Source: Thermodesulfobacteriota bacterium
GTDB taxonomy: Bacteria > Desulfobacterota_D > UBA1144 > Nemesobacterales > N074bin48
Direction: 5' to 3'
DNA length: 15,519 nucleotides
Assembly: GCA_041572575.1 (NCBI GenBank)
Contig: JBFFSH010000062.1
Span: forward strand, 1-15,519
A program made the position numbers. Numbering within the stretch: the first letter of the stretch is position 1; every line of letters starts with the position of its first letter. Below, one piece after another: positions 1-9,000 of this stretch.

Positions 1-3000
1 AGAAACCTGGAGGAGAGATTACAACGAGTACAGACCTCATTCGGCACTTGATAATATGACGCCGGAGGAGTATGTTAAACAACACATAAAAAAGCCGGAA
101 ATCTCTAATTATCCCGGTACAGCTTTTGGGTGAGGGTCATTACCTAAAATTCTAACTTATAATCTGGTACTATTATATGGGGCAAGGTCAGATTGATAGT
201 TTAGTTTTATGAGTTTTAAGACTCATTCTTAAAAATGATAAAATAAATCATAGCCTGTTGTGGAATTTACATATTCTACAACAGGCTTTTTATGAGTTTT
301 AATATCATTAATTAAATTTCAATACTATAGTATCTATAGATTAAATGCTCTGGTAGTACTTACTAGTTCGAAGTGTATACAAGAGCCCAGAAATTATTTT
401 TCAGTTTTAGCTACTTAACTTCAAAATAAAAAACCCACAACCAAAGCAACGAACTCTGATTGTGGGTTTGGTTTACTGTTAGTCAATTAATCCTATAGTT
501 TATGAGGTTAGAACTAATTAGGATACTACTCATAATCACTTGATCTTAAAGTGCAGTTAAAAGTTTCACTCGGTACTCTATTCAGGCAATACCTCTCCCG
601 AGCCCCCGGCTTCTTTGGGTAAATCCCTAAGCTTCGGCAGACCATCCTTGATATGCAGCACTGTCTCTTGATAGTTTACGTGAAAACCAGGCTTGAAGGG
701 AAAATCCTGAATCAAGACTGCATATACATCTATGAACCCCATGCCCGGATGCTCAGTGAAGATATGGCCTCCACAGGTCTTACACCACTTTCGATAGCTC
801 TGGGGTGTCTTGTTGTAAGTGTCTATGTTATCTTTTCCTTTTATAACCTCCACAGCTTCTGGTATCCATAATGTGAAGGCATTAACAGGACCTGCTGACC
901 AATGCCGGCACGAGTCGCAATGGCAATAGCCCATGACTGCTGGCTCACCTGTTACCGTGAACTCAACTTCTCCACAGAAACAGTTACCTGTGTAAGTTTT
1001 CTCTTTACTCATTATGCACCTCCTTATTGTTTTAATGTCATTACTATTCGAATTTAACCGGAGATTGCGGGTTTGTATTTACGCTAAGTTTAAATATGTC
1101 AGGGCGAGAATAATGACCCGCAACGTCAAGTGTTCTTTTGGCAGTCCCGACGAGTTTTATATCCAGATCAGCATAAAGTATTCCTTTTTCTTTATGCATC
1201 GGTCCAGCCACAATTTCTCCTCCCGGTTTTATGACTACAGAATCTCCGGGATTAATCCAATCTTCTGAATCTGGATATAAAGCTTTTTTCTCTGGAAAAT
1301 CTGGCGGTATATCCGAATTTTCAAAAGCTACTCCGCTGCAAACTACCCAGCACCTCCCCTCGCGGGCAATGTGCTGCAGTGTTCCTATCCAGCCATCCCC
1401 GCTGTCATATGTTGGTGCTATATAGATTTCCACACCTTGTGAGTACAGAGCATATCTTGCAAGAGGCATATAGTTTTCCCAGCATAACAATGTACTAATC
1501 TTTCCTATAGTTGTATCAACAACCTTTAAGCCCGACCCATCTCCAAAACCCCATATCATTCTTTCCGGGTTAGTTGGCATTAATTTACGATGTCGGTTAA
1601 GGATTGCACCATCAGACCCAATTATTATTACTGTGTTGTAAAGAGTTGCTTGACTGAATTTGCTGTCTTTTTCATTTAAACCGCATACTACCGTTATTTT
1701 ATGTTTTTTTGCTACCTTGCATATTGGGGAGATATCGTCTGAGTCTAGATTAACAGAATTATCTAATAAACTCGCATATAACTTCTCGCTAATGTTCCAG
1801 TCACCGCCCGGTCTCAGTCGCCATATCCAAGCAGGATAAGCTGGAATAAAAGCTTCTGGAAAAACTATTAACTGAGCACCAGAGTTTGCAGCTTGTTTGA
1901 TTAAAGCAACTGCCTTTTTAATTGTTTTTACTTTATTTAGAAATGCAGGAGATTCCTGTACTATAGCAACCTTGACCATAATATTACTCCTTGAAATCAT
2001 TTTTCAGACATTAACTACAGAAATATGTCTACTTAATATTTTGGTATTTGCAATGTTCAGTATACAAAGGAAAAGGAGTTTACTGAAACAAGGTTGTGGT
2101 TATAATGATATCTGAAAATTCTGAATCAGTGGAATATAGCTTATGTATGTTGTAATATCTAAAACGCATTTATTTTTATATACACGAGTTTAGCATATTA
2201 TGTGACGCCTACTAATCATAATGAAGTGCATTAAGATTGATAAAAACGATTATATCAGTCTTATTTTCTAACAAATATGCATTCTTTTGAGTTCGGAGTG
2301 TATACAAGAGCCCCAGAAATTATTTTTCAATATTTGTGCAATCTTAAAACGGCACAAAAAAACCCACAACCACAGGGGTTAGCTCTGATTGTGGGCTTTG
2401 TGGTTAGAAATAATTATCACTTATCAGCACTCAAAACAAGCCTCTTCCCCATTACATGTATTATCGGGTACATTGGTGGTTCGACAAGCGCATGCTCTAT
2501 CTCCATTACATGAGTTATTTCCAATTGTTATTCCATCAGTAACGTCATCACATGCATGCTCCCCATGGCATGAATTGATCCCTGTGGATGATGCATCATT
2601 GTCTTCACATGATTTATAACCAATACAAGAGTAATTTCCGATTGTATCTCCCATGCCGTCTCTTCCCGCTCTATCGCAGGCATCCATACTACGGCACGAA
2701 TTATCTCCTACGTCTGCATCATTGGATGTACATGCAAAATCATCATTGCACGATCTGTTTCCTATATCCCCGCCGTTAGATCCACATGCATCTGTACCAT
2801 TACATGAATTATGTCCTACACTCCCGTCATTTACCTGACACGCATCTTGACTATTACATGAGTTGTTTCCTACATCCCCGTTGTTATCCGCACAGGCTTC
2901 TAAACCATGACATGATTTATTTCCTACATCCCCTTCATTCTCATCACATGCTTCTTCTCCATTGCATGAGTTATTACCTATATCCCCGGTGTTGGAAGTA

Positions 3001-6000: not shown

Positions 6001-9000
6001 TTGGGTGGGATATCTCCGTAGCCTATGGCTGCCACGCATGTTACACAATCAATACTCTTTTCATCTAAAATCTTTGTGTAGTTTGATCAGGCAAAGTCAA
6101 ATCATCAAATATGTAGTCGCTATATACTTCTGGTCTGTCTCTAAATGCAGCCTGCTTAGCTTCTTCTATAATATCAACCCCTATCACATCATCTAAACCC
6201 AAGTTAACCAGCTCCTCTGCTACGATACCATTACCAGCACCCATATCCAATACTGTTATATCAGAAATGTTTTCAGATTCCTTGGACATTTCTTCTTGTA
6301 GAAGTTTCGCAACTACTTTAGTTTAATTACATTCCAGAATTTCATAAACTATTTTTTCATATAAACCCGGAATTGAAAATATGGTTTTATAATCGTGAAG
6401 TCTGATTTGTTGTTTTTCTTCACCTTGGCACATAAGTATATATTTCTGGTTTTGGTCTAGGTCGGCAATGAGGGGAATTACTATTTCCATAATGGAATAG
6501 GCAGTATACCATATGATTAAAGTAACCTTAATTCAGCTTGAATCTTACTTTTATGATAATAAACTACCAATCTCCGAACTATTTTCAATCATTTTTACAA
6601 ACTCCCGAGTTCGAAGAGTATATAAGAGCCCCAGAAATTACTTTTATTCTTTAACAAACTGTTATTTCCATTGTTTTGATAAATTAGCATGTACTCTTAC
6701 ATGTTAAAGTTAACCAGATTTTTAAATATTATTCTCAAGAGACCAGTCTTTTAATTCATTTAAAAACACTAGCGCTGATCTTCCGAAATCAGTTATCTCG
6801 TATTCCACAGCTATCGGTTTTGTACTTATTACCCTGCGTTTGAGCAAACCAATATCTTCCATCTCTTTTAACCTTTGGTTAACCATCTTCTTACTTGCGC
6901 CTTTTAATTTCCTAGCAAGTTCATTAAATCGTATGGGGCCGTCTTTTAGATACCACAGTATCGACCCTTTCCACTTTCCACCAATTATCCTCATACCTCT
7001 TTCAATAGGACAAGGTAAAATGCATGGATCGGAAAAATCCGCTACTTGTTTTTTATCTTCAGTAGTATCTGCTTCAGTTCTCATATTTCCTCCTCAATTA
7101 GTGGTTACTAAAAGTATACTAGTTGATTATAGTAACCTATCCGAATATAATCAACTTTTTAAAAAATAAAAGGAGTTAAAAATGAAAGCTTATCAAATTT
7201 CAAAACAAGATAAATTATATGAAATGAATCTTAATGAAATACCTGAACCTGAGATAGGACCAAACGATGTACTTATAGATATGAAAGCATGGTCACTCAA
7301 TTACAGAGACCTTAGTATGCTTAGAGGTGGATATTATAGAAATGATAAAGTAAAAACCAATCCACCACTAATTCCACTATCCGATGGCGCGGGTGAAGTT
7401 GTCTCCGTTGGCAATTCGGTCACAAGATTTAAAAAAGGTGACAGGGTTGCCGGAATATTTTTTCAGACCTGGATAAGCGGAGATTTAACTGATGAACAGA
7501 TAGGTTCTGCTCTTGGAGGTGCTATAGATGGTGTGCTTGCTGAAAAAGTCGTATTAAATGAAAATGGCGTTGTTAAAATACCGGATAATCTAAACTACCA
7601 TGAGGCTGCTACCCTTCCATGTGCAGCTGTGACAGCATGGCAGGCACTGAATTTCAACCCGGTAAAACCAGATGATACCGTTCTCATGCTTGGAACAGGG
7701 GGAGTATCAATTTTTGCATTACAATTCGTAAAAGCTGAAGGTGCAAAAGCTATAATCACATCAAGCAGTGATGAAAAGCTGGAAATGGCCAGAAAATTAG
7801 GGGCCGATCATACTATAAATTACAAAGAGCATCCGGATTGGGAAAAAGAAGTTTTAAAAATCACAGATGGACAAGGCGTAGATAATGTTATAGAAGTCGG
7901 TGGGGCAGGCACCCTCGAGAAATCAATAACTTCTGCAAAAGTTAGTGGGCGCATAAGTTTAATAGGTGTGCTGTCCGGACAACCTGAACAAAATCCTTCC
8001 CCTGTAATGATAATGCTAAAGAGACTCACACTACAGGGAATATATGTTGGAAGCAGAGATATGTTTGAATCCATGAACAAAGTAATAGAAGCAAATGATA
8101 TTAAACCTGTAATTGGAAAGACATTTGAATTTGAGAATGCCACTGAATCTTTTGATTATTTAAAAAGCGGCTCGCATTTTGGAAAGATAGTTATTTCTTA
8201 ATTTTTTTAACGTTATGTAATATATATATAAATAAAACAAGAAGGAGAAAGATTATGAGTGAAAATTACGACGAGGTAAATAAGTACATCAGCAAATTCG
8301 AAAATCTGGTGCCGGAGTTAAACGAAACATGGGGTGGATTTCGTGACGAAGTTTTCAAAGAGGGACTTATAAGCGCAAAAGACAAACAGCTAATTGCTCT
8401 TGCCTGCGCCTACATAACCGAATCTGCACATGACATACGAGAAAGAACAATAAAATCCAAAGAACTTGGCGCTACTGATGAACAGATTGCAGAATCTGTA
8501 TACATAGCAATGAGGCTTGCAATAGGTCAGCCTTATGCATTTAGCAGTATTGCGCTTGAAAATTATGATTTAATGAAAAACAAGGAAAGTGTTGTTAAGG
8601 GTTACTTTATAAGCAAAAATATAACTCCCCAAATACAGGACTTTCATAAAGTAAGCGGCTCAATGCACGAAAAGTTCAATGCATTTCATGAAATAGTATA
8701 CGAAGACGGTCACCTTCCCAAAAAGCTAAAAAAAGGACTTATGGGTCTTGCCTGTGCAATATTGGCTAAATGCCCGTGGTGTATTAGAAGCTGCGTAAGA
8801 GACGGACTGCAGGAAGGTGTTGTCAAAGAAGAAATCGTTGAAGCAATCAATATTGCTATGGTAATGAATGCCAGCGCCTGTGTTGCTAATACCGGCGTAT
8901 CCATGCAGGCAGCTGAAGAGATTAGCAGTTAATGAAAAAGGCCGATTTAATTTTTAAATCGGCCAATAAGTAACTCTTTCCATTATTATTACAAAACACG

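Follow-up and report, generated by a model that had tools for sequence, protein, structure and literature searches.

Tandem recombinase-less units bounded by tRNA-Gln serine-recombinase arms in a Thermodesulfobacteriota genome, and a recurrent truncation point in the recombinase genes of its relatives

Integrons are defined by the integrase IntI, the attI site, attC sites that fold as single-stranded palindromes, and co-oriented, mostly single-gene cassettes. In SCC elements, site use by the Ccr recombinases is relaxed and, to our knowledge, att lies outside the recombinase gene. The arrangement analyzed here was previously described for the ssrA islands of Dehalococcoides and their serine integrase DsiB (McMurdie 2011, PMC3146451). 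According to the available part of that paper, tandem islands lie behind the 3′ end of a stable RNA, an element-specific motif precedes the repeat, the reverse-strand recombinase gene overlaps attL with an uncertain stop codon, and 15 of 31 islands lack an integration module and were proposed to be cis-mobilizable. CIMEs and tandem ICE-IME arrays, as far as the accessible sections of PMC5704250 describe them, also lack a recombinase while retaining att and are stacked by later site-specific integration; most involve tyrosine integrases, CIMEs are presented as decay products, and some IMEs carry Rep_trans initiators. Composite SCC islands are tandem cassettes driven by large serine recombinases (LSRs), with internal att sites and the oldest unit outermost, and ccr-less SCC elements have att sites without a recombinase, but the target is rlmH, Ccr act in pairs and the elements are larger (PMC13739063, in the part available). 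For tycheposons and the tRNA islands of Prochlorococcus, the sections at hand of bioRxiv 2020.12.28.424599 report that serial integration at tRNA ends leads to islands with integrase fragments, but 910 of 937 elements use tyrosine integrases, leaving partial tRNAs.

The window considered here is a whole stretch of 15,519 nucleotides (contig C62) from a Thermodesulfobacteriota genome, in which a short repeat separates small gene units:

1..139 (+): right end of an IS3-family element (IS-A) inside the end of a second IS; rve_3 match; multi-copy at contig ends
140..190 (+): right end of the second, multi-copy IS (IS-B); 16 genome matches; high depth in runs
359..390 (+): P arm of site 1, lacking one C; end of a unit that the IS has cut
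391..2316: Unit 1, with left arm AAATTATTTT and P arm at 2284-2316 (+)
431-469: terminator hairpin of Unit 1
578-1012 (-): GFA of Unit 1 (Pfam)
1044-2000 (-): nitrilase of Unit 1 (Pfam)
2317..4279: Unit 2, with left arm, hairpin at 2357-2401 and P arm at 4247-4279 (+)
2424-3119 (-): DUF7640 of Unit 2 (Pfam)
3380-4051 (-): PAS-LuxR of Unit 2 (Pfam)
4280..5730: Unit 3, with left arm, MscS at 4363-5454 (-; Pfam) and decayed P arm at 5698-5730 (+)
5731..6634: Unit 4, with left arm, methyltransferase pseudogene at ~5760-6490 (-) and P arm at 6602-6634 (+)
6635..9026: Unit 5, with left arm, HxlR (-), zinc ADH (+), CMD (+) and decayed P arm at 8995-9026
9027..12659: CBS, SHOCT, two hypothetical proteins and a Ser/Thr kinase; probably older accessory DNA
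15371..15519: multi-copy repeat at the contig end (IS-like end); 20 genome matches

The repeat is real, with six copies in the window, one on contig C32 (24423-24455) and none elsewhere in the genome. A 36-nt probe yielded six genome matches at 27-36/36, the next best being 25, and none when reversed. A position weight matrix (PWM) from 25 distinct arms of other contigs, themselves found with a window-derived pattern, gave seven genome matches above 8 bits, every one on C62 or C32 (11.3-56 bits); the maximum was 9.8 bits for the reversed matrix and 10.4 bits for 200 window-sized Markov controls. The first-pass annotation had counted exactly six PWM sites, correctly confined to these two contigs, but overlooked the decayed copy at 8995-9026 (19.4 bits with one gap) and with it Unit 5. 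Its five same-strand sites on C62, said to lie 0.9-2 kb apart, are in place at a spacing of 904-1963 bp, as is the C32 copy it reported near 24427. A further window site near 10.5 kb was dropped for want of PWM support. Among 100 other genomes of the order, 18 contain the site (reversed control, 0) and four of these hold 2-6 copies, so that it is commoner than the single copies in 4 of 60 genomes noted before; of 30 metagenome stretches, 10 (approximately seven distinct) carry 2-4 sites, up from seven (five distinct). The site pattern had no match in viral contigs.

Pfam agrees with the cargo names assigned earlier (GFA, nitrilase, DUF7640, PAS-LuxR, MscS, and methyltransferase, the last a pseudogene disrupted by a stop and a frameshift), and also with the absence of a recombinase from the units: none was found among the window's ORFs, and genome-wide recombinase searches gave no match on C62. 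The LSR gene remnant seen in relatives (see below) is likewise missing from these units. The nitrilase and P arm of Unit 1 recur in L065 (76.7% over 1255 nt, stopping at the presumed crossover), and the left end of Unit 4 recurs downstream of a multicopper oxidase in L060. In the accessory DNA, the gene at 10573-11121, present in 0 of 100 other genomes of the order, sits after a P site in L065, and the Ser/Thr kinase has homologs downstream of a site in L057 and of a recombinase remnant in L032. Terminator hairpins lie downstream of two site copies.

The locus resembles an integron in being a row of small gene units split by a repeated site, and the label "integron-like" does not hold beyond this layout. 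It is not an integron, because IntI is lacking (best TIGR02249 score 82.8 bits against a cut-off of 265, in a 96% complete genome), no attC fold was found (eight folds of four sites gave z from -1.8 to +0.7, none significant and without a common structure) and gene orientation is mixed (19 minus versus 16 plus genes in 21 units of 0.8-8.1 kb at 10 loci). The site here is of the double-strand serine type.

The left part of the repeat is the P arm of an LSR that targets tRNA-Gln. The 3′ part had been said to copy the tRNA-Gln 3′ end; the match is confined to seven nucleotides (GCCCCAG) and a displaced GTTCGAA. The spacer between TTCGAA and GCCCC measures 7 nt in 50/50 tRNA ends and 12 nt in 58/58 sites with both motifs exact (out of 77 distinct sites), the latter value being partly built into the site search, i.e., the motif lies 5 bp further out in the site than in the tRNA. 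Symmetry is best around CC (69/168, compared with 56 for CA), and this center places the motif at positions 16-24 in the P arm and 11-19 in the tRNA, which is the attP/attB shift of PMC3783163; by sequence position, the putative ZD motif is thus 5 bp further out in the P arm than in the B arm. Our best guess is that crossover would occur at the last two C of GCCCCAG. Translated from the minus strand, all P arms of the window give the attP-state extension (L)GLLYTLRT or a decayed form of it, which is matched by database proteins ending in WLGLLYTLRT; judged by this translation, the repeat encodes the severed C-terminus of an LSR. A promoter-like or dif-like appearance of P ends in another family was discarded, because the DNA there encodes the LSR extension. 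Promoters at P arms numbered 42, with 43.5 expected.

The right arm of the window sites reads AAATTAYTTTT and is homologous between them (mean 0.83 over 14 nt; ~90 nt in alignment). It resembles some tRNA flanks at 10/14; it adjoins a tRNA in 0 of 49 tRNA flanks, and 47 of these 49 have only CCA in common. The right arms that relatives have at internal sites belong to a unit-borne family distinct from the native flank, and the same family lies directly at the tRNA in G025 and G093. Internal junctions are therefore hybrids. The arm AAATTAYTTTT is probably carried by the units and not part of the chromosomal flank. The earlier term "attR-type" was right in naming an att arm but imprecise in view of these hybrid junctions.

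On C32, the cognate LSR of the site is located at attL; its ORF, in which Pfam finds a catalytic (Resolvase), a Recombinase and a zinc-ribbon domain, ends inside the tRNA. This gene, formerly regarded as split, is a single frame broken by one TGA, with intact homologs at 67-70%. It is the only cognate LSR of the genome; a second LSR, located at tRNA-His, shares 29% identity with it. A further C32 ORF (Rep; L001:12423-13637) has a predicted structure with a Rep_trans fold (pLDDT 91.6; 32 when folded from the single sequence), its top PDB match being RepSTK1 (4cij, E 3.8e-5, TM only 0.26/0.35). It also matches inovirus G2P and, at 0.96 in the atlas, clusters with PF05144 on 19-31% of members. 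When it was checked for the motifs N′-D, RxD, T/SxY/ExG, YxKxxE and W/LxRxE (PMC5714925), residues Y191, K193, E234 and R236 were invariant across 146 rows, motif I had H in place of D and motif II was divergent. Pfam and PHROG gave no match, a PDB sequence search nothing relevant, and the Rep alignment no match in viral contigs. The model suggests that Rep is a rolling-circle initiator of the Rep_trans/gpII type.

Relatives show the tRNA-Gln site both empty and filled. In G055, G099, G100, G091 and G003, the tRNA is followed by a conserved small gene; in G089, G025, G030, G092 and G088, the same gene follows a P arm. Tandem att-bounded units stand behind the tRNA 3′ end on single contigs of G089, G030, G025 and G096. 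The order in G025 is tRNA, arm, 1.7 kb, P arm and native flank, and the 1.7-kb insert had no match to a serine or tyrosine recombinase. G093 has six sites, with the same arm at its tRNA as G025, and no match to the C32-type LSR; one of its sites adjoins a tyrosine-recombinase gene. Unit boundaries coincide with the site: homology of the nitrilase unit is 0.66 to its left and 0.45 to its right (random, 0.46), 12 site pairs are alike in their left flanks only, and in L049 and L152 the site is joined directly to P′ tails. The same cargo occurs beside different neighbors in different arrays.

The array is best read as having grown by tandem accretion of units that lack a recombinase, much as in CIMEs or the ssrA islands of Dehalococcoides, in keeping with the first-pass view of a tRNA-Gln LSR att arm behind which units accreted without a recombinase of their own. 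Specifically, we assign a probability of roughly 0.68 to the view that non-autonomous integrative units were stacked behind the 3′ end of tRNA-Gln(CTG) by an LSR acting in trans. The autonomous form, represented on C32 by a copy that now has a nonsense codon, would be an element of LSR and rolling-circle Rep with attP in the last LSR codons, each unit would start with a short unit-borne arm and end with a P arm, and the LSR would recombine the P-arm site of a circle with the tRNA end, the left (B) arm carrying specificity and the right arm being permissive. The newest unit would enter beside the tRNA and push older ones outward, resulting in a stack without free shuffling. Against this stand the TGA in the only cognate LSR of the genome, the lack of circles and precise excision joints in the runs compared (see below) and the 0 of 49 tRNA flanks with the right arm of the window. 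In addition, classical LSRs need a directionality factor to recombine hybrid sites (PMC3783163), and no such factor was identified. With two window sites and one cargo gene in decay, the array may have become fixed.

C62 is presumably linked to the tRNA on C32, and more sequence may lie between. The direct join across an IS that had been considered is not supported: the window starts with IS-A nested in the end of IS-B, whereas the left end of IS-A on C32 lies in unique DNA, and the C32-C62 junction has no 4-bp duplication partner, only a 3-bp match, to C125. Four of the 24 listed sequencing runs, three of them possibly the source of the genome, were compared as contigs only and contained no precise deletion, excision joint or circle between sites. 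A contig of X8 extends left of position 191 by 804 non-IS letters, among them 38 nt that look like a site, which hints weakly at a continuation of the array. X8 and X12 gave near-identical values, and an RNA run was flat, with no expression visible.

The units might instead be full LSR islands that lost their recombinase end by random deletion, the sites being scars and no unit ever having moved. This is the textbook CIME route, at least in the available part of PMC5704250, and it would accommodate the decayed sites at 5698 and 8995, the pseudogene, the scattered breakpoints of 7 of 27 LSR remnants and the lack of circles in the runs; random erosion, however, would not yield homologous left ends in six units, one arm family at tRNAs and internal sites of several genomes, or one start codon shared by 20 of the 27 remnants, and we regard it as unlikely. 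Somewhat less likely still is integron-like shuffling, in which any two sites of P arm and right arm recombine and units leave and re-enter in any order, the LSR replacing IntI. Units of 0.8-2.4 kb with 1-3 genes, the permissive look of the right arms and the changing neighbors of one cargo fit this idea, but independent insertion at the tRNA predicts different neighbors equally well, all internal sites have P geometry, like-with-like pairs are inert in characterized LSRs (PMC3783163), orientation is mixed, units reach 8 kb, and excision joints are lacking. A regulatory or structural role for the repeat (as a transcription-factor site or small RNA) in place of recombination is highly improbable, despite its intergenic position and the hairpins after two copies: it encodes the LSR extension, abuts P′ tails, forms the far end of tRNA-Gln islands in relatives, marks homology breaks and has no significant fold of its own, and the comparison of empty and filled tRNA sites largely refutes this reading.

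The LSR remnants of relatives point to how stacked units of this kind may originate. The shared start codon of the 20 lies inside AGTATTAC, the longest invariant DNA run among eight LSR genes. The remnants are polyphyletic, a single origin being rejected by the AU test (p=9.8e-5; 13 tails versus 26 longer genes, with four long-branch or other-family tails and one duplicate excluded), which rules out one MITE family of single origin; a functional small protein is unlikely, with stops in 5 of 17 tails. The tail had no match in viral contigs. AGTATTAC is present in 7/7 Rep-linked LSR genes of the order and in L220, but in only 1/30 LSR genes without detected Rep, the rows of this count not being independent. 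No conserved stem-loop that would present a nick site surrounds it in the eight LSR genes. The shared breakpoint and its co-occurrence with Rep suggest that an origin inside the integrase gene may spawn recombinase-less attP minicircles. That a cut at AGTATTAC by the element's Rep is a recurrent route to units in relatives has, in our estimate, about an even chance. The full sequence of events, repeated independently in many lineages, is put slightly lower and proposed tentatively: replication would start at an origin in the coiled-coil-coding part of the LSR gene, ~290 bp from attP, and end early at a look-alike GnGnATT, giving a minicircle of attP, the last ~100 codons and some cargo, without catalytic integrase, which an intact LSR would insert in trans at the tRNA.

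Compared with the ssrA islands, the target here is tRNA-Gln with seven shared nucleotides instead of a 20-bp repeat, the window units span 0.9-2.4 kb, the autonomous element has a putative Rep_trans/gpII-type initiator where theirs has DsiA/ParB/Mom, and a fixed truncation point does not appear in the available part of their description (PMC3146451). CIMEs differ in that conserved left-end families and a truncation recurring at one nucleotide are found here. Stacked recombinase-less islands are a known kind; new is the recurrent, polyphyletic truncation of the LSR gene at one codon.

By itself, the array adds a further phylum to the range of a known island type; the fixed breakpoint weighs more. 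Recombinase-less units such as CIMEs, module-less ssrA islands and ccr-less SCC elements are usually put down to random decay. If a polyphyletic truncation, precise to the nucleotide, were indeed tied to a rolling-circle initiator, they would have a specific generating mechanism. The LSR family seems to read mainly one target arm, which is relevant to integrase directionality and tRNA-targeted genome engineering. Minicircle formation from an origin in the integrase gene, if it occurs, would explain the recombinase-less tRNA arrays of uncultivated bacteria.

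The repeat described by the first-pass annotation is real: a scan confirmed five copies in the window (contig C62) plus a decayed one, and a seventh lies on C32, another contig of the same genome (2.6 Mb, 37% GC). Genome-wide, no further copy scored above the controls (reversed PWM, 9.8; 200 Markov controls, 10.4). That the units lack a recombinase of their own also held, as genome-wide searches place no serine or tyrosine recombinase on C62.

Features of the array on C62 and of the island on C32
C62 359, 2284, 4247, 5698, 6602: repeat copies (sequence scan)
C62 8995: repeat, decayed copy (sequence scan)
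Unit 1 cargo: GFA and nitrilase (Pfam)
Unit 2 cargo: DUF7640 and PAS-LuxR (Pfam)
Unit 3 cargo: MscS (Pfam)
Unit 4 cargo: methyltransferase, broken (Pfam and reading-frame check)
Unit 5 cargo: HxlR, ADH and CMD (Pfam)
C32 15725-15798: tRNA-Gln(CTG)
C32 15784-24455 (locus L001, 7785-16456): island of 8.7 kb, type ISP gene split
C32 24423: repeat, seventh copy (sequence scan)

The DUF7640 protein (window 2424-3119) consists of cysteine-rich 18-residue repeats (54-bp period) with a likely signal peptide. Window 12938-15319 encodes a 793-aa phosphofructokinase, also present in locus L065, whose N-terminal region of ∼440 aa has no Pfam match. At window 1-190, IS-A sits inside IS-B, near the right end of the latter; this nesting recurs on C71 and C74, with a diverged version on C125, which suggests a target preference.

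The integron-like nature proposed for the array did not survive: every integron feature tested failed (IntI search, attC fold, cassette orientation and size), and the array is not an integron. It works like the Dehalococcoides ssrA islands and the CIMEs, and is best filed there. In the contigs of four sequencing runs, no excision of units was seen. The nitrilase with its P arm (the left part of the site) is common to the window and L065 (76.7% over 1255 nt), the likeness ending at the crossover, and in 12 site pairs only the left flanks are alike; such sharing fits independent insertion and shuffling equally well.

On C32, a large serine recombinase (LSR) gene follows tRNA-Gln(CTG) on the minus strand, its stop codon inside the tRNA, and contains a single in-frame TGA. 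Among the other genes of the island are those for a Rep, type ISP restriction-modification, DUF4268 and a PD-(D/E)XK nuclease, and the repeat closes it; beyond lies another unit (PpoB2 and DUF1326). The ends at which C32 and C62 would join are both IS-bounded and same-stranded, and their flanks do not pair directly; array and island probably occupy the same locus. A second LSR-Rep element (C24 1239-4193) has an intact LSR of 486 aa ending in tRNA-His(GTG); the two LSRs are 29% identical and both carry the motif AGTATTACT. In one relative (L117), an LSR remnant and P arm lie at tRNA-Gln(TTG), and therefore the family is able to use both Gln tRNAs. In another (L036), tRNA-Gln stands in two tandem copies, with an LSR remnant after the second.

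Several features identify the left part of the repeat as the P arm. The site and the tRNA have GCCCCAG and GTTCGAA in common, with a spacer of 7 nt in 50/50 tRNA ends vs 12 nt in all 58 exact-motif sites (of 77 distinct sites), a figure partly built in by construction. Across seven element junctions, symmetry is best centred on the last two C (69/168; alternatives, 56 and 51), which places the motif at positions 16-24 in the site and 11-19 in the tRNA, the zinc-domain motif shift described for attP and attB in PMC3783163. Translated on the minus strand, the window's arms give the attP-state extension of the LSR, as in database proteins with WLGLLYTLRT, and in L049 and L152 P is joined to its attP partner, P′. 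At their outer border, some P arms (e.g., L064:1010-1036, oriented) look like the internal motif (GGTATTACT, minus strand).

Among tRNA-Gln flanks, 47/49 start with CCA and are otherwise unrelated. In several relatives with an empty site the tRNA end is followed by a conserved small gene, and in filled genomes the same gene stands after the last P arm; the insertion point is thus the tRNA end. An arm family of ∼45 nt, distinct from the window's, lies directly at the tRNA in two relatives and also after about a dozen P arms, and is therefore unit-borne. One of the two (G025) has an entire 1.7-kb unit at the tRNA without a recombinase; the other, G093, is a 98% complete genome with six sites in which nothing matches this LSR. 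The window's right arms (AAATTAYTTTT) are homologous to one another over about 90 nt, and several include a terminator hairpin; since none of the 49 tRNA-Gln flanks carries this arm, it would be unit-borne by analogy. In L055 (4130-4444, oriented), L073 and L032, only a ∼25-nt tRNA 3′ fragment lies upstream of an LSR remnant, with P-like letters in the latter two; these are perhaps far ends of another island.

In relatives, often nothing but the 3′ part of the LSR gene is left. The 5′ boundary is visible in 27 such remnants among the loci examined (duplicates counted once; L126, of another family and without the motif, and the contig-cut L137 excluded). Of these, 20 begin at the I390 codon (numbering of the C32 protein): a tabulated set of 16 together with L068, L139, L159 and L158, the last 12 nt longer. 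L139 belongs to the tRNA-His family. The other seven start elsewhere (L151, L033 second, L159 first, L034, L049, L145, L193). Upstream DNA is unrelated, except for G at −2 (15/16) and −4 (14/16; background, 0.17); at the 13 junctions without an upstream serine codon, G stands at −2 in 12 and at −4 in 11. Among short protein database matches, 21/63 start at the same point; in 19 of the 21 the preceding residue is not serine (R in 9, G in 8, also W and K), whereas 110/120 full-length homologs have S-I-T there. The remnants interleave with intact genes, with at least five forced changes, and their descent as one clade was rejected (p = 9.8e-5), although recombination with newly arrived intact genes could produce the same pattern. 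When eight long LSR genes from the two families of only 29% identity are compared, no invariant stretch of nucleotides is longer than AGTATTACT (C32 16084-16092), with 9 nt; the next has 5. No published account of the breakpoint or these arrays, nor literature on islands in this bacterial group, was found in searches that judged hits largely by listing and covered few subscription journals. A locally conserved stretch in dsiB, mentioned for the alignment figure of PMC3146451, could be relevant to the breakpoint.

The island ORF L001:12423-13637 is a predicted Rep_trans/gpII-like initiator, as judged by an atlas match, a structure prediction and two invariant residue patterns (Y-x-K, R-x-E); two Rep motifs are divergent, and it has no Pfam match. 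The 101 order genomes hold seven Rep matches. Every one lies near a full-length LSR gene, at a distance of 0.3-6.8 kb, and AGTATTACT is present in each of these seven LSR genes; two other full-length LSRs have neither Rep nor motif. Of 29 homologs from phages, plasmids and viral contigs that could be aligned at the I390 codon (a 30th was truncated), two have AGTATTAC, one with a Rep (L220) and one without (L204, 66% complete). The cases in these counts are not independent. Deletions can form at rolling-circle nick sites. Circovirus Rep nicks at TT/AC, a step contained in the motif, and M13 P2 nicks at TT/AA (PMC11765958). Early termination of rolling-circle replication (mechanism in PMC5714925 and PMC4797284) would join the fixed end to a relaxed look-alike sequence, giving the observed remnant junctions. 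Against an origin, no conserved hairpin surrounds the motif in the eight LSR genes and, for the window itself, none of the six units contains an LSR remnant; remnants of this type do occur in relatives with the window's right arm, both in the same-genus genome and in metagenomes (L032, L033, L055). We put the probability of a candidate rolling-circle origin inside the integrase gene at roughly 45%, slightly short of even, and it is mainly on this testable hypothesis that the interest of the array rests.
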